64,000 nucleotides of DNA from Vulcanimicrobiota bacterium (GTDB lineage Bacteria > Vulcanimicrobiota > Vulcanimicrobiia > Vulcanimicrobiales > Vulcanimicrobiaceae). A program made the translations under genes and the position numbers. Below the pieces are notes generated by a model that was not told the origin of the DNA, did no database searches, and saw only the letters and a list, made by a program, of their open reading frames with translations. Positions 1 through 49,502 of the stretch are shown in pieces. Location: positions 1 through 64,000 of the forward strand of contig CAWCIZ010000006.1 of assembly GCA_963795855.1 (NCBI GenBank), written 5' to 3'. Within the stretch, counting starts at the first letter, position 1; every line of letters begins with the position of its first letter.

Positions 1-522
1 TGTCGGCGCCGAGGGGCGACGCACGCTCGCGCGGGAGCGATCGTCCTGCATCCCGGTGCGGCCAGCGAATCCCGCCGTTGGCCCGCCGATCGATGGGTCG
101 ATCTGTGCCGGCGCCTGCTCGACGAGGGCCATCGCATCGTGATGACCGGATCTGCGCGCGAATTCCGGCGTTGCCGCTTTATTGCAAAGGCGGCGCATCT
201 GCCGATCGAGGCGGTACTCGCCGGTCAAACCGATCTCGAAGACCTCGCTTGCATCATCGCTTCGGCGCGAGCGATCGTATGCGGGGACACGGGAATCGCG
301 CACGTCGCAACCGCCTTACGCACGCCGTCCGTCGTCTTATTCGGACCGACGTCGCCGCGGTATTCGGGATCTCCGGTCAATCGTCCGTTTCATCGAGTTC
401 TTTGGCGCGGAATTCTCGGCGATCCGCACGCTCCGTACGTCGATCCGGGGCTCGCGTCGATCACAGTCGAGGAAGTGCTCGCAGCGTTGCGCGAGTTGTT
501 GCACCTCGCGCGCGCCGGGTAA
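1..522 (+). CDS. Glycosyltransferase family 9 (heptosyltransferase-like), 5'-truncated by the window edge
   Basis: Frame 1 is open from base 1 and reads IVLHPGAASESRRWPADRW...IVCGDTGIAHVATALRTPSVVLFGPT, typical GT9 motifs. Confidence 0.85.
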   Translation, partial: CRRRGATHARAGAIVLHPGAASESRRWPADRWVDLCRRLLDEGHRIVMTGSAREFRRCRFIAKAAHLPIEAVLAGQTDLEDLACIIASARAIVCGDTGIAHVATALRTPSVVLFGPTSPRYSGSPVNRPFHRVLWRGILGDPHAPYVDPGLASITVEEVLAALRELLHLARAG

Positions 523-531
523 ACTGCGTTC

Positions 532-803
532 ATGCCAGTACGTAAAACCGTCAAATCATCGAACCGCACTCGCGCGCAACGCGCCGGCAAATCGGATATG
601 GTGCTGCCCGGCCGCCGCGGCAAGTCGCAAGGTTCGCCGGCGATCGATGAAAACAACGAGGAAGTATTCGGCGTCTTGCTTTCGGAACGGCGCCGCATGG
701 GTGAAGCGATTCCAAGCGTTCCCGAGTCGAAAACGAAAACGACGCAAAGCGCGCAACCCAAAAAAGCGCCGAAGACCGCGTCACGAAGCGGCGGCGCGCA
801 TGA
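532..803 (+). CDS. Small basic hypothetical protein (3' end uncertain, possible frameshift)
   Basis: ATG at 532 follows GGGTAAACT. The N-terminal ~80 aa look protein-like (MPVRKTVKSS...EEVFGVLLSERRRMG). The raw ORF runs on to 1221 across the next gene; an ATGA at 800-803 suggests the true end. Confidence 0.4.
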
Positions 804-970
804 GCACGTTTGGCGTCGAACGCTTCGAGGGCGCCGGCGGAAGTATTGCGATCAAACTCCACGGCGGCGATGCCAATCGACTACTGCTCGCTTTGGAACG
901 ACTCGATCAGCAAGGCGGTCTCGACCCGCCCTCGCGCAACTGCGTGAATCACTACGTGCTGGGCTCGTAA
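800..970 (+). CDS. Small hypothetical protein
   Basis: MSTFGVERFEGAGGSIAIKLHGGDANRLLLALERLD... with typical codon usage; end uncertain. Confidence 0.35.
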   Translation: MSTFGVERFEGAGGSIAIKLHGGDANRLLLALERLDQQGGLDPPSRNCVNHYVLGS

Positions 971-1020
971 CGAAATCCTCCGGCGACACGGACAGCGCGC
1001 CGAGCAGCGGCGATAGCAGG

Positions 1021-1046
1021 GTTTTTCCCGCTCGCACTGCGGGTAA
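1021..1046 (+). promoter_or_regulatory. SigB/SigF-like promoter GTTT-N16-GGGTAA
   Basis: GTTT 1021-1024 and GGGTAA 1041-1046, upstream of RBS AAGGAGGT and the GTG at 1077. Confidence 0.6.
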
Positions 1047-1076
1047 CCGTGAGTGCAGAGATAAGGAGGTCACGAA

Positions 1077-1880
1077 GTGGCAACAGCACAGCGCACAACC
1101 GATCACAACGAGATTCGGCGCTGGGTCGAAAGCCGCGGCGGCCGTCCGGCAGTTATTGAGGGAACCGGCGGCGTCTTGCGCATCGACTTCGGCGAACCCG
1201 ACGCGAGCTTGGAACAAGTAGCGTGGGATCGATTCTTCGATATTTTCGATCGCAGCAACGTCGCGTTCTTGTACGATCCGGAAGGCCACATGGTCAAGTT
1301 CGTCCAGGACTCGCAGGCGGCGGCCTCGCGCAACGGCAGACGCAAAAAGACCAGCAACGGTCGCAAAAAGAGCAGCAACGGTCGCAAAAAGAGCACCGGC
1401 GCTCGCAAGAAGAGCACCAGCGGCCGTAAGAAGAGCACCGGCGGCCGTAAGAAGAGCACCGGCGGTCGCAAGAAGAGCACCGGCGGTCGTAAGAAGAGCA
1501 CCGGCGGTCGCAAGAAGAGCACCGGCGGTCGCAAGAAGAGCAGCAACGGTCGCAAAAAGAGCACCGGTGGTCGCAAGAAGAGCACCGGCGGTCGCAAGAA
1601 GAGCACCGGCGGCCGTAAGAAGAGCACCGGCGGCCGTAAGAAGAGCACCGGCGGCCGCAAGTACGGGAAGAAAGCCGGACGTAAAGTCGAGCGCGCAATG
1701 CACGAGATGAAAAGCGGCGAGCCCAAGTCGGGCCGAAGCGGAAAGAAAGTGAAGAGCCGCAAACAAGCGATCGCGATCGGGCTTTCCGAGGCGCGTCGCA
1801 GCGGCGGAAAAGTACCGCCGAACCCCAACCGGCGAAAGTCTTCGCGGCGCAAACGCAGCTCAGAAAAAGCCCGATCGTGA
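1077..1880 (+). CDS. Histone-like basic protein: conserved N-terminal domain (TTDHNEIRRW..LRIDF..WDRFF), 15 RKKSTGG-type repeats, C-terminal DUF6496
   Basis: Strong RBS and GTG start. The C-terminal KVERAMHEMKSG..SGRSGKKVKSRKQAIAIGLSEARRSG matches DUF6496 from recall. Confidence 0.85.
   Translation: MATAQRTTDHNEIRRWVESRGGRPAVIEGTGGVLRIDFGEPDASLEQVAWDRFFDIFDRSNVAFLYDPEGHMVKFVQDSQAAASRNGRRKKTSNGRKKSSNGRKKSTGARKKSTSGRKKSTGGRKKSTGGRKKSTGGRKKSTGGRKKSTGGRKKSSNGRKKSTGGRKKSTGGRKKSTGGRKKSTGGRKKSTGGRKYGKKAGRKVERAMHEMKSGEPKSGRSGKKVKSRKQAIAIGLSEARRSGGKVPPNPNRRKSSRRKRSSEKARS
1341..1655 (+). repeat. 21-bp tandem repeat x15 (consensus cgcaagaagagcaccggcggt, RKKSTGG)
   Basis: Counted directly: RKKTSNG, RKKSSNG, RKKSTGA, RKKSTSG, 5x RKKSTGG, RKKSSNG, 5x RKKSTGG, with synonymous variation between units. 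Confidence 0.95.
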
Positions 1881-1895
1881 ATCGGGCTTTCTCTT
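1866..1895. terminator. Bidirectional intrinsic terminator
   Basis: AAAGCCCGAT-cgtga-ATCGGGCTTT flanked by A and T runs between convergent genes. Confidence 0.8.
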
Positions 1896-2344
1896 TACAC
1901 CGGAACGGTTGCCTGAGCGGCCGCCTCCTCCAGTTTCGTGCCTATTTCTTCCAACTCGGGTTTGTCGAAGAGATGATGCGCGATCTTGAACATCGTGCTT
2001 TCTTCTTCGTCCACGTGATGCTGGACCAGGTCGCGCAGAACGACGAGCTTGGCACGATACTGCTCGGTTCCGGGGTCGAGTTTTTCCAAACTCTCGATGG
2101 TGATCTTGACGAGTCCGTGCTCTTCATACGCTTCGGCGACCTCGAGACGTTGATCGCCGTTTTCCGCGCGCCGCCGTATTTCCGGATAGAAAATTTCTTC
2201 TTCGATTATCGCGTGCAGCCGAAGGTCGCGATCGATCTGTTTGAACAGATTCATGCGCTCGGTTGGTTCTTTTGCCTCCAACACTTTTTTGAAGAGCGCT
2301 TCAACCTCACGGTGCTGCTTCTTGAGCAGATTGAGTGCGTCCAC
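1895..2344 (-). CDS. Hemerythrin/HHE cation-binding domain protein
   Basis: QHREVEALF, LHAIIEEEIFYP, EEHGLVK, HHVDEEESTMF; GGAGGT RBS. Confidence 0.9.
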   Translation of the reverse strand: MDALNLLKKQHREVEALFKKVLEAKEPTERMNLFKQIDRDLRLHAIIEEEIFYPEIRRRAENGDQRLEVAEAYEEHGLVKITIESLEKLDPGTEQYRAKLVVLRDLVQHHVDEEESTMFKIAHHLFDKPELEEIGTKLEEAAAQATVPV

Positions 2345-2358
2345 GGTAGTACCTCCGA

Positions 2359-2392
2359 ATTTTGCATCTACCCACTGTGGGTAATGAGCAAC
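2359..2392. promoter_or_regulatory. Overlapping divergent SigB-like promoters
   Basis: Palindrome TACCCAC-T-GTGGGTA gives GTTG-N15-GGGTAG on the minus strand and ATTT-N16-GGGTAA on the plus strand. Confidence 0.5.
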
Positions 2393-2423
2393 AACGAAAG
2401 TCAGCGGTTACGAGAGGGAACGT

Positions 2424-2795
2424 ATGAACGAAGCAGGCGGCGTGCGGCGGGTCAGGGCGAACGAACTCGACAGCGCGACGATGCCGATAGTCGACGCGCG
2501 CAGACATCCAGGCAAGGAACAGATCCGCGGTGCGTTGCGCTACGACGAAAAGGCACTGCTCGACGAAGAGCGCCTGACGTTGCCGCTTCCCCACGACGGC
2601 ACTATCGTCGTGTATGCCGATTCCGAGGACGAGGCGCAGCAAGTCGCCGCGCGCCTGCGCGAGCAAGGCTATACGCAAGCCGCGGTTCTCGAGGGCGGTT
2701 TCGATTCGTATCGTCAGGCGGGCTTGCCGACCGAAGAAATTACGCAAGAGCAGCCGGTGCCCGGCCACGAGGGAACGGGCATTCCGCGCGGATAG
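2424..2795 (+). CDS. Rhodanese-like domain protein (no catalytic Cys)
   Basis: IVDARR..IRGA..IVVYADSEDEA..AAVLEGGFDSYRQAGLP; the usual VVYC position is Ala. Confidence 0.8.
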   Translation: MNEAGGVRRVRANELDSATMPIVDARRHPGKEQIRGALRYDEKALLDEERLTLPLPHDGTIVVYADSEDEAQQVAARLREQGYTQAAVLEGGFDSYRQAGLPTEEITQEQPVPGHEGTGIPRG

Positions 2796-2801
2796 CGCCG
2801 C

Positions 2802-3311
2802 ATGCACGACATCGATCCCGAACTACAAAAGGACGGTACGCTCCGCGTCGTCGTGGAAACGCCGCGCGGCAGCCGCCACAAGTACGCCTGGAACGAAGAA
2901 CTCCGCGCGTTCGAGCATAAGGCAACGCTGGGAAGCGGCCTCGTTTGGCCGTACGATTACGGCTTCATTCCGCGAACGAAGGGCGGTGACGGCGATCCGC
3001 TCGATGTTCTCGTGCTAATGGACGAGCCGGCGTTTCCGGGCTGCGTCGTGCACGTGCGCATCATCGGCGCATTCGCGGTCGAAAAGAACGGCACGACGAA
3101 CGACCGTTACGTCGCCTGCCTGCTGCCGAGCCGCGAAATATCGCTAAGCACCGACGGGTACGAAACGCTGAGCGACTTACCGAAGGCGCTGCTCGCTCAG
3201 TTGGAACATTTCTTGACGGCCTACTCGGTTCAACGTGGAAACGACGTGCGCGTTCGCGGACGCATGCAAGCGAAAAGCGCCTTTGCGCGGATTAAAAAGT
3301 CAGTCGCTTAA
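2802..3311 (+). CDS. ppa: Inorganic pyrophosphatase, family I
   Basis: VETPRGSRHKY, YDYGFIPRTKGGDGDPLDVLV signature. Confidence 0.9.
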   Translation: MHDIDPELQKDGTLRVVVETPRGSRHKYAWNEELRAFEHKATLGSGLVWPYDYGFIPRTKGGDGDPLDVLVLMDEPAFPGCVVHVRIIGAFAVEKNGTTNDRYVACLLPSREISLSTDGYETLSDLPKALLAQLEHFLTAYSVQRGNDVRVRGRMQAKSAFARIKKSVA

Positions 3312-3818
3312 CCGCGGCGGCGAGATCTGCAAAAGTCCGAGGACATGCGAGAGGCGCGTTGCATAGCTTTCTTGGCCGCTGCGTAGCAACTCGTCGCGCA
3401 TTTGGCGCAGTTCGTCGACGGCGCGGCTTACGTTCGGCCGGTTCATCTCCCGGAACACTTCACGAGCTCGGTTGAAGCGCGTTTCGTCGTCGTCTTGCGG
3501 TATGCGGCGTTCGAACGACGGCAGTTCCTCGGAATGCCCCAAGACGATGTCTCCGACGATCTCGATGATGGCGTCCGCATGCACGCGCGCGTTCGTGGCC
3601 GCGAGATCCACGTAGCGGTCCTCGCGGTCGCGGGCCGAAATGGCAACCAGGTTGGCCTCGACGCACAATTCCAGGAGCCCACCGACCAGGGGAACGGCAT
3701 CTGAAGCGGCTTCCAAATACGCTTCGTAGACTTCATCCTCGTCCTCGTCCGTCGCGTCCAGATAATCGTTCCAAGCGCGGCGCGCATCCAGAACCGCGCG
3801 GTAGACGTCTTCAGCCAT
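3300..3818 (-). CDS. Hypothetical acidic helical protein
   Basis: ORF from MAEDVYRAVLDARRAW with typical codon usage. Confidence 0.65.
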   Translation of the reverse strand: MAEDVYRAVLDARRAWNDYLDATDEDEDEVYEAYLEAASDAVPLVGGLLELCVEANLVAISARDREDRYVDLAATNARVHADAIIEIVGDIVLGHSEELPSFERRIPQDDDETRFNRAREVFREMNRPNVSRAVDELRQMRDELLRSGQESYATRLSHVLGLLQISPPRLSD

Positions 3819-4071
3819 GCGCGGTTCTTCTACGGGCGGCTTCCGCACTACTCGCGAAGCCCCGAAGGAAGCAAACATGCGATGCCGCACGCACAACGGG
3901 GAGGTTATTGGGCGCGGCATCGCATTTAGGGTTTACGTTACGCGCAATCGTGCAAATCGATGCTCGCCTTTTTTGATCGATTTCCGCAGCTGCGCATCCT
4001 CATGATACCCGGTGCCGGCGCAATCAACCGGTATTGTTTGCAGATTGACTAATGTGAAAAGGCGGAACGTC

Positions 4072-4987
4072 CTAAGCGTTGCTCGCATGGCGCAGCAGAT
4101 AGCCGAGCAGCACGTCGCCGCCGGAAACTAATGCTGTCGTGTGCTTGCTCAAACGCATGAAAGACTCGACGATCACTAGGCCGCCGAGTAAAATGTCCGC
4201 GCGCTGCGGATTCATGCCGTCCAACGCTCGCCGCTGGTCGAGCGAAGTCTTTGCTAAACGCGCGATCCAACCGCGGATATCTTCGCTCGACAGACTCCGC
4301 GTACGTGAACTGGTCGCGCCGTCCTCGCTTCAGCGATACGGTCGTCGTCGCGCTTCCGCCCACGAGCATGAGACGCTGAACAGGCGAAAGGTTCGCAGCA
4401 GGCTCAAGCGCTTGCCGTGCCGCCGCCGCCGCGTCCTTAATCACGTCGGGCGGTACATTCCCATCGCGCCCGGCCAACATGGGAAACGCTTCGGTCAAAC
4501 GCACGCCGCCGATCTCGCACGAAACGACGCGCTCAACGCATTCTTTCGTTCCGACCGCATATTCGGAACTGCCGCCGCCGACGTCGAGAACGCCGAATCC
4601 GGCGTGCTCCTCGTCCTCCACACCATTCAACGCGCCGGCAAAAGAACACGCCGCTTCTTCCTCACCGGAGATGATTTCTATCGAGCAGCCGGTCAGCGCT
4701 CGAACCCGCTCGGAGAAGTCGCGTTCGTTATCGGCGCGGCGAAGCGCGCTCGTCGCGATGACGCGAACGTCGGCGGTATGTTCGCGCAGTGCTGCCGCGT
4801 GCTCGCCAATCGCGTCGAGCGTGCGTTGCATCGCTGCTTCTTCCAAATGGCCGCGCTCGCGAAGTCCCTCACCGATCCGCGTGCCGATCGATCGCTGCAA
4901 CACGGCCACAGGCGGCCGTTGGCTCAAATCCGCAGCCAGCACGCGCGTGGAGTTCGTGCCGATCGAAATGAGTCCGCGAACGCTCAA
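4072..4987 (-). CDS. ppx: Ppx/GppA exopolyphosphatase family (apparent +1 frameshift ~4295)
   Basis: ISIGTNSTR, ATSALRRADN, ISGEEEA, LDVGGGSSE. After the shift it continues GMNPQRADILLGG..GGDVLLGYL to a TAG at 4072. Confidence 0.85.
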
Positions 4988-5346
4988 TGGTCGCCGGCGT
5001 GCCGGGATTCAAACAGCGCCGCTCGGCGCTTCTTCTGCAAGAAATGCCGCTCGTGAGCGGGCGGCAGTTCGGGGTTCTCCCACTCTTGCGTCGATTTCAG
5101 ATAGTTCGCGATCTGCGTTTCCAACTGTTCGTCGCGAAGTTGCGGCGCCAGTACCACCAACGGCCGGCGGCCCGACGACTGGATCAGAAAAACGAACGGT
5201 TTGCGCGATATGCTCGCGCGGTCGTAGTAACCCCGATGTTTTTCCACATCTGCCGCAGGCGCACTCGCAAGACGCCCGTCGTCGAGCCGCACGGTTGCGC
5301 CGTAGGCGTTGAGATTGATGACTATGCCGCGCTGCGTTTCCGTCAT
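4984..5346 (-). CDS. Divergent S1 RNA-binding domain protein (YabR-like)
   Basis: GIVINLNAYGATVRLDDG S1-like start and LETQIANYLKSTQE tail; divIC-yabR-ppx synteny. Confidence 0.65.
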   Translation of the reverse strand: MTETQRGIVINLNAYGATVRLDDGRLASAPAADVEKHRGYYDRASISRKPFVFLIQSSGRRPLVVLAPQLRDEQLETQIANYLKSTQEWENPELPPAHERHFLQKKRRAALFESRHAGDH

Positions 5347-8574: not shown

Positions 8575-9300
8575 TCAGTCGGTCAGGTAATTGAGCAGCG
8601 CCAACGCGACAAGCGCGGCGGTTTCGGTTCGTAAGATACGGCGGCCGAGTGAGACGACATGTGCGCCGGCGGCCTTTGCAGCATCGGCTTCGCCATGCGA
8701 GAAACCGCCTTCGGGACCGACGACTATGAGCACGCTTCGCGTCGTTGCGACGATCTGCGGCAGACGTTCGCGAAGCGGCACGCCTTCCGCCAATTCCCAT
8801 GGAAAAAGCACGGCGTCGAACTCCGCGAACCGGCCGCAGAGGTCCGCGAACGCGATCGGATCCGCAACGTGCGGGACATCGTAGCGCCCGCACTGCAGCG
8901 CCGCGGTTTTCGCCAAACGCCGCCAGCGCTGGAGTTTATTCTCGCTGACGTCCGTGACCACCGTGCGCTCCGATTGCAGCGGCAGAATTCGCGCAACGCC
9001 GAGTTCGGTGAGTTTTTCGACCACGAAATCCATCTTCTGGCCTTTCGGTACGCCTTGCGCGACGGTAACTTCCAAACGCGCGCGCGTTTTGCCGGACGTA
9101 CGTTCACCGAGCGTTGCTCGAACGCTGCGGCCTTCGATGGAGAGCGTGGCCTGGAACTGCTGTGCTTTCGAATCGATAACCTCGACTGCATCGCCGCTGC
9201 GCTTGCGTAAAACGGCAACGATCTTGTGAGCGTCGGTTCCGTCGAGGGTTACGACGTCGCCGGGTTCGTGCGAACCTTCGACGAAAAACCGGTCACTCAG
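8575..9300 (-). CDS. rsmE: 16S rRNA m3U1498 methyltransferase (apparent CTG start)
   Basis: In-frame extension (L/M)[16 protein letters not shown] to a CTG at 9300; VEKLTELGV, VGPEGGFS, LGRRILRTETAA. Confidence 0.9.
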   Translation of the reverse strand: MSDRFFVEGSHEPGDVVTLDGTDAHKIVAVLRKRSGDAVEVIDSKAQQFQATLSIEGRSVRATLGERTSGKTRARLEVTVAQGVPKGQKMDFVVEKLTELGVARILPLQSERTVVTDVSENKLQRWRRLAKTAALQCGRYDVPHVADPIAFADLCGRFAEFDAVLFPWELAEGVPLRERLPQIVATTRSVLIVVGPEGGFSHGEADAAKAAGAHVVSLGRRILRTETAALVALALLNYLTD

Positions 9301-10430
9301 GTTTGAACGCGTCTTTCACTTTATCGAGGAACGAACGCTCGTCGACGTTGTCGCCGCCATGACGCGCGTATTCCTCCAGCAACTCGCGCTGCCGTTTGTT
9401 GATCTTGGACGGTACGACGACGTGAACCGTCACGACGTGGTCGCCGCGGTGGGTTCCGCGAACGGCCGGCATGCCGCGGCCGCGCATTCGGAACGTCGTT
9501 CCGCTTTGCGTACCGCCATTCATATTCAGCGCCAGTTCTCCGTCGAGCGAGGGAACCGTGATTTGCGCGCCCAGCGCCGCTTGCGGGAATGAAACCGGCA
9601 CGTCGACGTACGTATCGAGGCCGTCGCGTTTGAACAGCGCATGCGGCGCAATACTGAGGTAGACGTACAGATCGCCGGCCGGACCGCCGCGAATTCCCGC
9701 TTCGCCGCTGCCGTTGATGCGAATGCGGCTTCCGTCGTCAACGCCCGCCGGAACTTTGACCGTAAGGTGGCGCTCCACTTCGCGCCTTCCGCGGCCGCGC
9801 GCACGTCGGACACGGTTCTTGAATGACTTGACCTTCACCGCCGCATTTCGTACACGTCGACTGTGTCACGAATTGTCCGAGCGGCGTCTGACGCACCATG
9901 CGTTGCACGCCGCTCCCGCTGCAACGATCGCATGGAACCACCAGCGTGCCGGGCGAAGCACCGCTTCCGCGGCACGTTTCGCACTGCGCCAAATGACTGA
10001 ACTGGATTTCGCGCGTCGTCCCGCTGAACGACTCTTCGAGCGCGATCTCGAGATCGTACCGCAGATCGGATCCGCGCGCCGGCCCGCTGCGCCGTGCCTG
10101 TTGCTGCTGCGCTCCCATGCGGTCGCCGAAGAACATGTCGAAGATGTCGCCGAACCCGCCGGCGCCGCCAAAACCTTGACTGAATCCGCCGAAGTCGCCC
10201 ATGCCGCCGTTGCCGACGGTTCCGAAACGATCGTACTGCGCGCGCTTCTGCGGATCCGAGAGCACCTCGTATGCTTCGTTGATTTCCTTGAAGCGATGCT
10301 CGGCTTCCGCTTTGTTGTCCGCAACGTCGGGATGATGCTTGCGGGCAAGCCCGCGATACGCACGCTTAATGTCATCGGCGCTCGCGCCGCGGTTTACCCC
10401 GAGCACCTCATAGAAGTCTTTGGTCGGCAT
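9293..10430 (-). CDS. dnaJ: Chaperone DnaJ (apparent +1 frameshift ~9800)
   Basis: J domain with HPD, G/F region, CxxCxGxG repeats, C-terminal domain in the second frame. Confidence 0.95.
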
Positions 10431-21784: not shown

Positions 21785-22813
21785 CTAAGGCGGGTCGAAT
21801 GTGGAAAGCGCGGAAACCTCGGAATCATAGTACGATGGTAGCGTGTTATACGGGTTGGAGTTGGCATTATCAGTGACGTATAGCCATTTTACGTACGCTG
21901 CATCCGCGAGAACCGACGAAGCATCGAACGTAGCAACGCCGTGAGCGATGAATGACCATTTCGCCGGCGGATATGAGGTATGGAACGAACTGCTAAGGTA
22001 CGCCGGTGTCGGTAACCCGGCATTTTCGTAGAAAACGACATTATCGACGGACGCGGCAAGATTCGCAGTCGTGTCCGTGCCGGGATTACCGACCACGTAT
22101 GCTAAACCCAGGCCATGCGCGTAACCCGTTAGCGCAGTATAGTATGCAGCACACGGATCGTATCCCGGCGGGGGCGTGGCGGGAGCGTAAGAGTTGTACT
22201 CGCACTTCGTGCCGTTCGCCATTTCGTCAATGAAGATGCCATTGGGATGATACCAGCTATTTTGATTGGCGATTTCCCGTTCTACGGTCGCAAGCGTTTG
22301 CGTAAATCCCGTACCACCCTTGTCATATGACGAATGCACGTACATCAGTATGGTTGCGCCCGCTGCTTGCTCGCTCCTTACAACGGTCCCATAATTCGGA
22401 TCAGGCGTTGCACCAGCACCGTTACTGTCGTCCGCAATCACGGCTACGGGAACGTTCGGATGCGTTTCACGGTCTGCAATCACTTTATTCCAAGCCGTCA
22501 AACCGCTTCCTGACGGATAGATATAGAGTGGAATCATTACGCCTGTTGCCTGATTCGGTGTTGGCGCTGGCGTTGGGCTGGGCGTGGGTGTCGCTGCGGC
22601 ACTCGTCGGCGTCGGCGTGGGGCTCGGGATCGAACCCGTAGGCGTCGGCATAGGGCTCGGGATCGAACCGGTGGGCGTCGGCGTAGGCGTGTTTTGCCCG
22701 ACGGTTGCACTTACATGTGGAGTTGGAGTCGGTCCAGTGTACGGGGCCGTTGCTTGTCCTGGACTCGAACAGGCCGCAAAGGCGACTACCGCGAGAATCG
22801 ATACATATTTCAT
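21785..22813 (-). CDS. Spherulin-4 / GH135-like lipoprotein with Pro/Thr linker
   Basis: Lipobox FAAC; GVMIPLYIYP, SNGAG..PDPNY, GIFIDEM, VVGNPGT, VFYEN, YNTLPSY. Confidence 0.85.
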   Translation of the reverse strand: MKYVSILAVVAFAACSSPGQATAPYTGPTPTPHVSATVGQNTPTPTPTGSIPSPMPTPTGSIPSPTPTPTSAAATPTPSPTPAPTPNQATGVMIPLYIYPSGSGLTAWNKVIADRETHPNVPVAVIADDSNGAGATPDPNYGTVVRSEQAAGATILMYVHSSYDKGGTGFTQTLATVEREIANQNSWYHPNGIFIDEMANGTKCEYNSYAPATPPPGYDPCAAYYTALTGYAHGLGLAYVVGNPGTDTTANLAASVDNVVFYENAGLPTPAYLSSSFHTSYPPAKWSFIAHGVATFDASSVLADAAYVKWLYVTDNANSNPYNTLPSYYDSEVSALSTFDPP

Positions 22814-27175: not shown

Positions 27176-28156
27176 CGACGGGCGTAGCCGTGGACAGCGG
27201 CGTAGCAGTCGGTGACGGCGTAGCCGTCGGTAACGGCGTAGCCAGTGGGCAAAGGCGTAGCGTAGAGACGGCGTAGCGCCGGTTGCGCACAGCGTCTGCA
27301 GCGAAGCGACCGCGTTTTTGTCCGCAGCCGCGGTGCCGAGTTGCGTATATACCAGCGCGTACGCGTTGCCGCTTCCTTGCGTTACCGCCAAATGTACCGT
27401 TACCGGCATGGGGCCGGCGGTAATCCGCAGTTCCGAAATCAATCCCTGATAGCCGCACATGGTCATGCGCTTCTGCTGCACGATCTTCAGCGGCATTTTG
27501 CGTCTGGTGTTTTTCATCGTTTGCTGCTGCGCGCTTCCGAGCAACGACTCGAGCGAACCGGCCGGCGAACCGCGCATCAGCAGCAAGATTTGGCCCGGCT
27601 GGGTGCCCATCCACATACCTTCAATCTGCATCGCATCTGACGTCTTCGTCCAGCCGTGCGGCGGCGAGAGCGTTTGCACGCTCGCCGTTCCGCTGGGGCA
27701 AAATGCATGCATCACGGAGGCGATTGCCGGATCGGCGGCATGCTGCAAAGGACGCGTGTAGACGAGCATATACGCGTGGCCGTTCTTCACCGCCACCTCT
27801 TGCTCCAGCATTGCTCCTTTGCTGCCGCTTCCAATGCGCACGTTCACCATTCGCGCAGGCGATCCGCAAAGTTTGATGGCAGTGTTGGAAATCGTCTTCG
27901 CGGCGCCCGTGTCTGCGCTCCCATGCAAGGTCGACATCGGCGAGGTAAGCATCTCGACTGTTCCGGGAAACGGAAATGCGACGGCGCTGAATGTCGCGCG
28001 GCCACCGCCGCTCAGAGCCGGGCCTTTCCAAACGTTGGTAACTTGGCCTGCTACGGCGCTCTGCGGCAGTTGCACCCATCCCGCCGGCGGCGTGAACGGC
28101 AGCGCCGCAACGACGGCCAACACGACGGCTTGCACCCCCGAAATCATGCTTGCCAC
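27120..28156 (-). CDS. Secreted protein with two PsbP/Mog1-like repeats and an ATP(L/S)PT tail (frameshifts ~27250-27265)
   Basis: Two PPxGW-initiated domains, each ending AYxLVYT..S(V/L)xxxC; the repeat tail continues in another frame. Confidence 0.65.
27180..27278 (-). repeat. 18-bp coding repeat (gctacgccgNNNccgact, ATPxPT) x~5-6
   Basis: Repeated ggcgtagc on the plus strand at ~18-bp spacing. Confidence 0.7.
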
Positions 28157-34782: not shown

Positions 34783-34790
34783 CCCAGCGG

Positions 34791-35345
34791 TCAGCGCGTG
34801 GACTTACGCCCGCTTTTCTTTCGGGTTGACGTTTTTTTCGCGGTCTTCTTTTGTCCGCGCGCCGGCGTACGCTTCTTCGAACCGCTCGCGGGGCGCCGCG
34901 ACCGCATCAATTGGGCTTTCTTTGCCTCGGCGCGTTTGCCAATCTCTTCGAGTTCTTCCTCATCGAGAAGTTCTCGCGCCAGCGTAAAAATCGTCGATTC
35001 TTCTTCGCGAACGTGGTGCTTGACGTTCTCGCCCAAGACTTGCAGTTCGGCTTTGAACAGGGCCGCGTTTTTCTGCCGCCCGTTCAGAAGTGAAATCAAA
35101 TGCTTGACGACGTCGTGCTCGGTGAATGCTTCGAACACGTCAACGAGTTCTTCGTCCTCTTCGGCGCGATCGCGCAGTAACGGATAGAACATCGATTCCT
35201 CGAGCGTGGCGTGAACGGTAAGCGCCTGCGACATCTGCTGCGCCAGTTCGCTCAGCTTGCGATCGTCGGGTTCCAAGCGTTGCACCTCATCGATCATGCG
35301 GGCCACCATCTGATGATCTTGCTTGAGCAAATCGAGTACGTTCAT
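34791..35345 (-). CDS. Hemerythrin domain protein with Lys/Arg-rich C-terminal tail
   Basis: LKQDHQMV, VHATLEESMFYP, TEHDVVK, HHVREEESTIF; tail KKTAKKTSTRKKSGRKSTR; AGGAGG RBS. Confidence 0.9.
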   Translation of the reverse strand: MNVLDLLKQDHQMVARMIDEVQRLEPDDRKLSELAQQMSQALTVHATLEESMFYPLLRDRAEEDEELVDVFEAFTEHDVVKHLISLLNGRQKNAALFKAELQVLGENVKHHVREEESTIFTLARELLDEEELEEIGKRAEAKKAQLMRSRRPASGSKKRTPARGQKKTAKKTSTRKKSGRKSTR

Positions 35346-46700: not shown

Positions 46701-49502
46701 GGCGCCGGGAACCTCGGCTTGACCGCCGAGCTTTCCTTCGAAACCGACTTCGCGCGCAACGGTCGTAACCTGGTCGGCGAACGTTGCGAGCGTGTCGATC
46801 ATGAAGTTGATCGTGTCCGCGAGTTGCGCGATTTCGCCCTTCGCTTCAAGCGTGAGTTTACGCTTGAGGTCGCCGTTGGCGACGCCGGTGACGACCTGCG
46901 CGATGCCGCGCACTTGGTTCGTCAGGTTCGCCGCCATGGAGTTGACGTTGTCCGTGAGGTCTTTCCACGTTCCGGAAACGCCCGGGACCTGCGCCTGGCC
47001 GCCCAGTTTACCTTCGGACCCGACTTCGCGCGCGACGCGCGTGACTTCGCCGGCGAACGCGTTGAGCTGGTCGACCATCGTGTTGATCGTGTCTTTGAGT
47101 TCGAGAATTTCGCCGCGAACGTCGACGGTGATCTTCTTCGAAAGGTCGCCCAGCGCGACGGCGGTGGTGACCTTCGCGATGTTACGCACCTGAGAGGTCA
47201 GGTTCGAGGCCATCGTGTTCACGGACTCCGTGAGGTCTTTCCACGTGCCTGCAACGCCGCGCACGAACGCCTGGCCGCCGAGGCGCCCTTCCGAACCGAC
47301 TTCGCGAGCGACGCGCGTGACTTCGGAGGCAAACGCGTTCAGCTGGTCGACCATCGTGTTGATCGTGTTCTTCAACTCGAGAATTTCGCCGCGAACGTCG
47401 ACGGTGATCTTTTTCGAAAGGTCGCCGTTTGCGACGGCCGTGGTGACTTCGGCGATGTTGCGGACCTGGTTGGTGAGGTTCGACGCCATCGTGTTGACCG
47501 AGTCCGTCAAATCTTTCCACGTGCCGGAAACGCCCGTGACCTCGGCCTGACCGCCCAGTTTACCTTCGGAGCCCACTTCGCGCGCGACGCGCGTGACTTC
47601 GCCGGCGAACGAGTTGAGCTGGTCGACCATGACGTTGATCGTGTTTTTGAGTTCGAGAATTTCGCCGCGAACGTCGACGGTGATCTTCTTCGAAAGGTCG
47701 CCTTTCGCGACGGCCGTGGTTACTTCGGCGATGTTTCGAACCTGAGACGTCAGGTTCGATGCCATGAAGTTCACGGATTCGGTCAAGTCGCGCCACGTGC
47801 CCGAAACGCCGGCGACCTGTGCCTGACCGCCCAGTTTACCTTCCGAACCAACTTCGCGCGCGACGCGCGTGACTTCGGATGCGAACGCGTTCAACTGGTC
47901 GACCATCGTATTGATGGTGTTCTTGAGTTCGAGAATTTCGCCGCGCACGTCGACGGTGATCTTACGCGAGAGGTCGCCCTTTGCGACGGCGGTCGTAACG
48001 TCGGCAATGTTACGCACTTGGTCCGTGAGGTTGCCGGCCATCGTGTTGACGGAGTCCGTCAGGTCTTTCCACGTGCCCGAAACGCCCGGAACCTTTGCCT
48101 GTCCGCCCAGTTTGCCTTCGGAGCCGACTTCGCGCGCGACGCGCGTGACTTCCCCCGCGAACGAGTTGAGCTGGTCGACCATCGTGTTGATCGTGTTCTT
48201 CAACTCGAGGATTTCGCCGCGAACGTTAACCGTGATCTTCTTCGAAAGGTCGCCCTTCGCGACGGCGGTCGTCACCTCGGCGATGTTACGAACTTGAGAC
48301 GTCAGGTTCGCGGCCATGAAGTTCACGGATTCCGTGAGGTCGCGCCACGTGCCCGAGACGCCGGCGACCTGCGCTTGTCCGCCGAGAATACCTTCGGAGC
48401 CGACTTCGCGCGCCACGCGCGTGACTTCGCCGGCGAACGAGTTGAGCTGGTCGACCATGACGTTGATCGTGTTTTTGAGTTCGAGGATTTCACCGCGAAC
48501 GTCGACGGTGATCTTCTTCGAGAGGTCGCCCTTTGCGACGGCCGTCGTCACTTCGGCGATGTTACGAACTTGAGAGGTGAGGTTCGACGCCATGAAGTTC
48601 ACGGATTCCGTGAGGTCTTTCCACGTGCCCGAAACGCCGGCGACCTCCGCCTGGCCGCCGAGTTTGCCTTCGGAGCCGACTTCGCGCGCGACGCGCGTGA
48701 CTTCGCCGGCGAACGAGTTGAGCTGATCGACCATCGTGTTGATGGTGTTCTTGAGTTCGAGAATCTCGCCGCGCGCTTCGACCGTAATCTTGCGCGAGAG
48801 GTCGCCTTTCGCGACGGCCGTCGTAACATCGGCGATGTTACGCACCTGAGACGTCAGGTTCGACGCCATCGTGTTGACGGAGTCCGTCAAATCTTTCCAC
48901 GTGCCGGCGACGCCTTTGACGCTGGCCTGACCGCCCAGTTTACCTTCGCTGCCGACTTCGCGAGCCACGCGCGTGACTTCAGACGCGAACGCGTTCAGCT
49001 GGTCGACCATGGCGTTGATGACCTTCGCGGACTTCAAGAAGTCGCCGCGAAGCGCGTGACCTTCGATTTCGACGGTCATGCGCTGCGAGAGATCGCCCTG
49101 CGCGACGGCCGCGAGAACGCGGTTCGTTTCCGCCATCGGTGCGGCGACCGTTTCGATCAGCGAGTTGTACGCCTCAATTTGTTCTTGCCAACCGCCGCTC
49201 GCGCCATCGAACGAGGCGCGCAGCGAAAGGCGCCCGTCGCGAGAGATCGATCGGCTGACGCGTTTGATTTCGCCGAGCATGCGCGTGTTGGTTTCCAACA
49301 CCTCATTGAACGCTTGCGCAATCTCCGCTTCCGTGCCGCTGCCTTTTACGGGCAGACGTACGGAGAAGTCGCCGCTGCGAAACGATCGCAGTGCGTTCAG
49401 CAGGCGTCTTTCGCCTGCGGTGATGGAATGGGTAAGGTCGCCGTTCGTATGAGACGCGGCACCATTACCCTCGGCGGTTTTCTTGGCCGTTGTCGAAGGC
49501 AT
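43770..49502 (-). CDS. Cytoplasmic poly-HAMP hybrid histidine kinase (HAMP array-GAF-HisKA-HATPase-3x REC)
   Basis: Repeated [22 protein letters not shown]; three receiver domains. Confidence 0.95.
46560..49260 (-). repeat. 276-bp (92-aa) HAMP repeat array, ~9 conserved units plus a degenerate unit
   Basis: Nine VT(R/T)VAREVG..GGQA units at 92-aa spacing. Confidence 0.9.

Follow-up and report, generated by a model that had tools for sequence, protein, structure and literature searches.

Chlamydial Hc2 (HctB) is described as having Lys-rich tandem repeats of variable number, with DNA binding expected (PMC2848022), and a basic repeat tail in Streptomyces HupS and mycobacterial HupB is described as compacting DNA in resting cells, tuned by acetylation (PMC11229371). 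The KPAA tail of AlgP is reported to position polyphosphate granules (PMC9239181). Knock-down of chlamydial HctA/HctB did not stop nucleoid condensation in the experiments described in PMC13317200, so a nucleoid "condensing" role is not assured for proteins of this kind. Given that result, and because the KPAA tail of PhaF is reported to bind RNA (PMC12818456), the ligand of such basic tails is not always DNA.

We analyzed a gene near one end of a contig from a Vulcanimicrobiota bacterium, within a stretch of 64,000 nucleotides that we refer to as the window. An earlier note, made from the sequence alone, had proposed that this gene encodes a stress-induced, nucleoid-condensing protein whose 15 tandem heptads resemble the tail of histone H3. 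The closest relatives of the protein were found in metagenome-assembled genomes (MAGs) of Ca. Baltobacteraceae and Vulcanimicrobiaceae (Eremiobacterota), a group known from dry and cold soils. In a search of mostly open-access literature, no paper on Eremiobacterota histone-like proteins was found, and there was no relevant match on Eremiobacterota in connection with dormancy or sigma factors.

Anatomy and control of the gene

The gene (1077..1880, + strand) has a GTG start and a Shine-Dalgarno sequence, AAGGAGG, at 1063..1069 (+), 7 nt 5' of the start; GGAGG is retained upstream of most orthologues. The product is 267 aa long, with a net charge of +64, a pI of 11.9 and no hydrophobic segment. 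It consists of an acidic alpha/beta domain (the N-domain, aa 1-78; 1077..1310, +) belonging to a widespread family without a name, a heptad tract of the form RKK(S/T)xxG repeated 15 times (1341..1655, +), and DUF6496 (PF20106; aa 195-248; 1659..1820, +), a predicted helix-hairpin-helix mini-domain matched at E 5e-22 and 78.5 bits against a gathering cut-off of 24. The tract contains 45 K+R, 31 S+T and no acidic residues. Both the open reading frame and a tandem-array scan (1330-1661; 21-bp period, 15.8 copies, score 454) confirmed the 15 heptads, 21-bp unit and 10 exact RKKSTGG copies of the earlier note; the other heptads are RKKSSNG (two), RKKTSNG, RKKSTGA and RKKSTSG (one each). By its composition, a long, predicted disordered, K/R-rich repeat tract in a strongly basic protein, the product belongs with the H1-like class. 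A hairpin across the stop codon (1866..1890, +; -17 kcal/mol), not called by the terminator scanner, is a possible terminator separating the gene from the convergent hemerythrin gene.

The synonymous variation among exact units, taken in the earlier note as a sign of selection, is real, but units that are identical in protein can differ only synonymously, and the argument is circular. When all 15 units were compared with their consensus, there were 15 synonymous and 12 non-synonymous differences (pN/pS 0.25), and the distinct variants were synonymous in four of nine cases (p = 0.14); within-gene purifying selection on the heptads is suggestive only. Window positions 1-5131 overlap positions 1-5100 of another contig of the same assembly (C1) in reverse orientation, with 97.9% identity and 35 gaps, and the two contigs can be joined. 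A true second copy of the gene was rejected, the C1 copy being this contig-end overlap. The array recurs in the C1 copy with indel errors and differs there at several third positions of the units, so single bases in the array region are error-prone. An example of a suspect base is that at aa 215, which is P here and L in homologues. Elsewhere in the window, ppx/gppA (4049-4987) and dnaJ (9293-10430) look frameshifted, probably by long-read errors.

We found a SigB/SigF-type promoter, GTTTTT-N14-GGGTAA, by reading the sequence at 1021..1046 (+). It fits the B. subtilis SigB consensus, given as GTTTAA-N15(±2)-GGGTAT in PMC9847131. A relaxed version of the motif (GTTT-N14-17-GGGTA) was present 5' of 19 of 24 orthologous loci and in 1.3% of 4800 control windows, in a comparison for which the pattern was drawn partly from these same loci and the related loci are not independent. 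A genome-wide scan with the motif gave no enrichment (37 found, about 45 expected). A SigB/F/G sigma factor scores above the profile cut-off in the host genome, and the genome's KGG/GsiB-like gene, which served as a positive control, has the promoter GTTTAA-N13-GGGTAT. This stress gene (L214:1013-1599; G000:C3:508.5-509.1 kb) is split in two frames, and its promoter is an exact B. subtilis SigB consensus. In the one RNA run with matches the share was 0.05, the contigs being short and mostly divergent.

Evidence on control also came from other phyla, where an EcfG-type motif (GGAAC...GTT, as given in PMC6599016) was found 5' of 22 of 68 stand-alone N-domain genes, compared to a background of 2.8%. 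The Sinorhizobium meliloti protein SMb21454 is 50% identical to the N-domain over 70 aa. The start site of its gene has been mapped, with an RpoE2 promoter (PMC3616915), and the gene is listed with a logFC of 3.10 (adjusted P 2.6e-17) upon RpoE2 overexpression (PMC6180224). The N-domain family thus appears to be controlled by general stress sigma factors in two systems that are unrelated, SigB-type here and RpoE2/EcfG elsewhere. Together with the 19 of 24 loci and the SigB/F/G factor, the induction of SMb21454 bears out the stress regulation that the earlier note had read from the promoter, and general-stress (SigB/F-type) control of the gene is well supported by sequence. No main-text mention of SMb21454 was found in mostly open-access literature, and a Rhizobium etli p42b tag was not found in the main text of PMC3892343.

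The gene lies in an apparent stress island of glycosyltransferase, hemerythrin, rhodanese and pyrophosphatase genes beside ppx/gppA. A GT9 glycosyltransferase gene is located upstream (1..522, +), a hemerythrin-domain gene is convergent with the repeat gene (1895..2344, -), and a rhodanese-like gene and an inorganic pyrophosphatase gene follow (2424..3311, +). There are back-to-back GGGTA boxes between the divergent hemerythrin and rhodanese genes. The region just 5' of the gene (532-970) is conserved, unnamed and without a Pfam match. Two putative open reading frames lie in it: a basic one that starts at 532 and is preceded by a separate GGGTAA box near 517, and a short one that stops at 970, an end shared by the orthologous loci. 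A second hemerythrin-domain gene (34790-35345, -) encodes a basic K/R/S/T C-terminal tail, and basic repeat tails also occur on several other host proteins, including an HU and products of genes on contigs C3 and C4. Other repeats in the window are a 276-bp unit present 7.6 times at 46920-49019 (-), in a gene that we take to encode a poly-HAMP sensor kinase, and Pro/Thr and Ala/Thr/Pro linker repeats at 22604-22687 and 27181-27277, in probable exported proteins.

Origin of the fused gene and its domain families

The N-domain, a repeat and DUF6496 occur together in 29 protein clusters (P0004-P0032) and in many MAG loci. Assembly chimerism as the source of the fusion was rejected on these grounds, the clusters being independent. 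We surveyed 201 genomes of the class. Seven of these (G059, G027, G153, G025, G210, G048 and G198) carry a flag as unpublished, and they enter the class tallies but no other claim. DUF6496 was present in 163 of them and the N-domain in 24. The two were fused in 17 of the 24 (four with frame breaks), adjacent and separate in three (G073, G096 and G200) and unlinked in four. The fusion is therefore patchy in the class (17 of 201), and the statement in the earlier note that the two domains are mostly separate proteins was borne out. In G073 and G096, a membrane gene of the lmo0937 family sits between the N-domain and DUF6496 genes; in G173, an in-frame GGAGG-ATG is retained at the fusion junction, a relic start.

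In split forms the repeat accompanies DUF6496, which indicates that the protein arose by the joining of a stand-alone N-domain gene to an adjacent repeat-DUF6496 gene. These arrangements show, at the level of gene sequence, a history in which two neighboring stress genes were joined while split forms survive. A phylogenetic tree, with 20 of 46 inner branches open, does not fix the number of fusion events.

The N-domain matched no Pfam, NCBIfam or PHROG family (PHROG matches were weak at best), and no phage match was found. There were 3,116 N-domain representatives at E ≤ 0.001, from clusters at 50% identity. Some sources label the domain "1,4-alpha-glucan branching enzyme"; a Pfam/NCBIfam scan found no GH13 catalytic domain in its 80-90 aa, a size that gives no basis for the label, which is probably mistaken. 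Confident AlphaFold models were alpha/beta for the N-domain (pLDDT 84) and helix-hairpin-helix for DUF6496 (pLDDT 82). Fold comparisons of the two gave best Z scores of 3.9 and 4.5, no Foldseek match at E ≤ 0.001 and nothing above background, nucleic-acid-binding folds such as Lsr2 and HU included, a result that does not establish new folds.

In different phyla, basic tails of unrelated sequence are attached to the N-domain. Among 120 long homologues, 83 were basic, 31 neutral and six acidic, and 81 contained two or three N-domains; the domain may self-associate, given how often it is duplicated in tandem around basic linkers. Among the best 150 matches (139 newly listed representatives), 76 had no tail, 28 a basic one, 18 a neutral one and 17 an acidic one. 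Because most of these representatives are tail-less and some are acidic-tailed, the N-domain does not appear to be tied to DNA binding. KSTGG was absent from the 120 long homologues and from the 139 representatives. Five proteins (P0208, P0236, P0308, P0315 and P0357) combine the N-domain with long poly-Asp/Glu tails in place of basic ones and are possibly chaperone or decoy counterparts, and haloarchaeal forms (P0163 and P0171) have tandem N-domains fused to a lamin-tail domain. DUF6496 proteins commonly have basic tails and usually stand alone. No paper using the term DUF6496 was found, again in mostly open-access literature.

Repeat variation and alternative readings of the tract

We compared repeats in 39 fused proteins (29 clusters, nine MAG loci and the window protein), leaving out L004, which has a frameshift, and the duplicates L007 and L011. 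Copy number and repeat unit shift freely between close relatives, and the linker varies from 43 to 143 aa, with a K+R fraction of 0.40 ± 0.03. Of 274 heptads, 89 read RKKSTGG, more than any other, and this unit also turns up in some proteins encoded next to topA (below). KSTGG was carried by 91 of 368 RKK units and was absent from 18 of the 39 proteins. ARKSTGG and KSTGGK never occurred in the 39 proteins, and RKSTGG occurred once. On a poorly resolved tree, KSTGG-rich and KSTGG-free proteins were scattered among each other. Ser or Thr followed [RK]K at 94% of 345 sites in the fused proteins compared to 35% of 314 sites in 14 topA-linked proteins, and the codons for the Ser after the basic pair are TCN or AGY, depending on the genome. 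The conserved features are the basic composition and the Ser/Thr after the basic pair, and RKKSTGG is best read as one of a range of rapidly evolving basic repeats found across the lineage.

A second, repeat-only H1-like gene is located elsewhere in the host genome (G000:C1:93413-93883, - strand; L124:3414-3884), divergent from topA-trmFO; it is new here for the host family. Such a gene adjoins topA in 16 of 16 genomes from the host family and order, and in none of 13 genomes examined from another family (two of them cut upstream). Each of the topA-linked proteins has its own unit (RKKAGG, RKKTAG, RKVRKA, KKSTA and others); they are mostly Ala-rich, and KSTGG was present in one of the 14 that had not been picked by a KSTGG pattern. 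Promoters differed between the two kinds of genes. Sigma70-type sites were found at 16 of 24 located starts of topA-linked genes, with SigB-like sites at none, and at none of 22 fused genes (5% of random windows), a contrast that shows the two to be under different predicted promoters. Of these two H1-like genes, the one in the window appears to be the stress partner and the topA-linked one the housekeeping partner. The repeat genes at 1425-1510 of the window and at 93.7 kb of G000:C1 share an exact stretch of 56 bp, the longest in a 9 × 8 comparison (the next was 34); other same-genome pairs were unremarkable. The shared stretch may stem from a recent gene conversion or from an artefact of polishing.

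The repeat survey bears directly on what the tract is. The tail of H3 continues beyond residue 10 to give the KSTGG stretch shared with the repeat unit. A true mimic of H3 K9/S10, or a substrate in a bacterial histone code with readers or writers of the SET, chromo or kinase type, would suit the prevalence of RKKSTGG among the heptads and its appearance in topA-linked proteins. The recognized H3K9-mimic motif is given as ARKS/ARKT (PMC6028506, PMC10611923); the unit here reads RKKS, lacks the ARKS core and overlaps with the H3 tail only in KSTGG, which nearly half of the fused proteins do without. Six units searched against PDB sequences returned no histone at E ≤ 10, and the protein has no signal segment. 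Comparing units across homologues and looking for SET-domain genes and kinases, as the earlier note had suggested, gave other units in homologues, the outcome that the note itself had named as making the H3 match coincidental, with two Hanks kinases and no SET gene found in the host genome (86% complete), in which no SIR2 gene was found either. Of the 201 class genomes, 13 had SET genes; all 13 belong to a single genus that lacks the fusion (g24; 13 of its 15 genomes), and no SET gene was found in the fusion carriers of this sample. The proposed identity with the H3 tail fails on these grounds, and we rejected mimicry as very improbable; judging from the homologous sequences, the likeness is coincidence and is not in itself a discovery. 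A different view, in which slippage produced the tract in a nearly neutral manner, would place the function in the two small domains, with any basic flexible linker serving and the unit and its Ser/Thr bias reflecting the seed that expanded. The free turnover among close relatives, the non-significant within-gene test and the existence of tail-less stand-alone N-domains agree with this view, but the narrow range of the K+R fraction, the maintenance of RKK-S across both families of Ser codons and the retention of a long tract in 39 of 39 fused proteins make it quite improbable. Variation among homologues shows instead a pattern in which charge and length, not the H3 motif, would be what matters.

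Other alternatives concern the ligand and the process served. The protein could be an accessory devoted to DNA repair in stationary phase, namely LigD/Ku end-joining, comparable to the basic tail of Ku. We surveyed up to 10 kb on each side of 19 loci, some of them cut by contig ends, and found ligD within 2.5 kb upstream in four and within 10 kb in five; at the window locus it lies 10-12 kb upstream. In addition, DUF6496 shares an open reading frame with LigD, UDG, TopIB or HNH domains in six of 120 matches. Against this, 11 of the same 120 join it to non-DNA domains, most joins have a Met directly before DUF6496 and resemble read-through gene calls, and the commonest neighbor is the GT9 gene (14 of the 19 loci). 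Because ku and ligD are themselves described as general-stress genes (PMC6379672), co-regulation explains the co-location as well as a dedicated role would, and we regard the latter as unlikely. It is somewhat less unlikely, although still doubtful, that the protein mainly binds polyphosphate or RNA, with polyphosphate granules or RNA/ribosome condensates, not the nucleoid, being organized in stressed cells. The reported behavior of the AlgP (PMC9239181) and PhaF (PMC12818456) tails, the presence of ppk in the genome and the pyrophosphatase and ppx/gppA genes downstream are consistent with such a role. ppx was within 6 kb in 10 of the 19 loci but missing from nine, and here it is on the opposite strand and resembles a core locus next to the island; polyanion ligands are in any case indistinguishable from sequence.

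Proposed function and comparison with known systems

The reading that we favor, and to which we give a somewhat better than even chance by analogy with known proteins, is that of a stress-induced, non-specific, polyanion-coating H1-like protein, comparable to Hc2, AlgP and HupS, that phosphorylation might tune. A SigB/F-type sigma factor very probably transcribes the gene under stress or growth arrest. By analogy, the disordered RKK(S/T)xx tract would bind the phosphate backbones of nucleic acids without sequence preference and would coat and protect the chromosome, possibly also RNA or polyphosphate. A small folded domain sits at each end of the tract, and the two probably serve to cluster or anchor it. 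The host genome also has the putative housekeeping H1-like repeat gene beside topA. The strong Ser/Thr bias after the basic pair would suit the phospho-switch proposed in the earlier note, and, with two Hanks kinases in the genome, we speculate that phosphorylation frees the protein from its ligand on recovery.

We also raise, as a tentative and rather doubtful extension, a two-variant H1-like system in Vulcanimicrobiaceae. A sigma70-driven, mostly Ala-rich topA-linked protein would act during growth, and a second variant, SigB-driven, rich in Ser/Thr and bearing two terminal domains of unmatched fold, would replace or supplement it under stress and be freed by Hanks-kinase phosphorylation of each repeat. 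If true, this would be a bacterial parallel to linker-histone variant exchange without histone homology. The findings point to the way in which dormant Eremiobacterota might pack their nucleic acids, with housekeeping and stress H1-like proteins side by side, and they offer a testable role for two large uncharacterized families, DUF6496 and the unnamed N-domain stress family.

The resemblance to described proteins is partial in each case. Histone H3 tail mimics (G9a ARKT, influenza NS1 ARSK) share at most the five residues KSTGG; the window protein differs from them in lacking the ARKS core, in its unconserved motif and in showing no sign of export or of a eukaryotic target. As in Hc2, there are basic tandem repeats of variable number. 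The analogy drawn in the earlier note to Hc2 and H1-like proteins gains support from this composition and from matches to the HC2 profile (PF07382) in two homologues (P0031, 48.7 bits; P0176, 37.1 bits; cut-off 40), which arise from Lys/Ala/Ser-rich tracts and which we treat as sub-threshold; the window protein itself had no match. Unlike Hc2, which uses K/A pentamers, the window protein uses R/K/S/T/G, is capped by two folded domains and has a general-stress promoter. It shares with Pseudomonas AlgP/PhaF, whose tails bind DNA, polyphosphate granules or RNA, the combination of a small folded domain with a disordered basic repeat tract of variable length, but the domains and the repeat are unrelated and its tract is Ser/Thr-rich, without Pro/Ala. 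In contrast to HupS/HupB, it has no HU domain, and the host genome has two separate HU genes and no SIR2 gene that we could find. DUF6496 (PF20106) proteins have the same C-terminal domain and often basic tails, but, unlike the window protein, they mostly stand alone. S. meliloti SMb21454 has an N-domain 50% identical over 70 aa and is likewise general-stress regulated, but it has neither a basic tract nor DUF6496 and its promoter is of the EcfG rather than the SigB type; it is now identified as a tractable model gene for the N-domain family.
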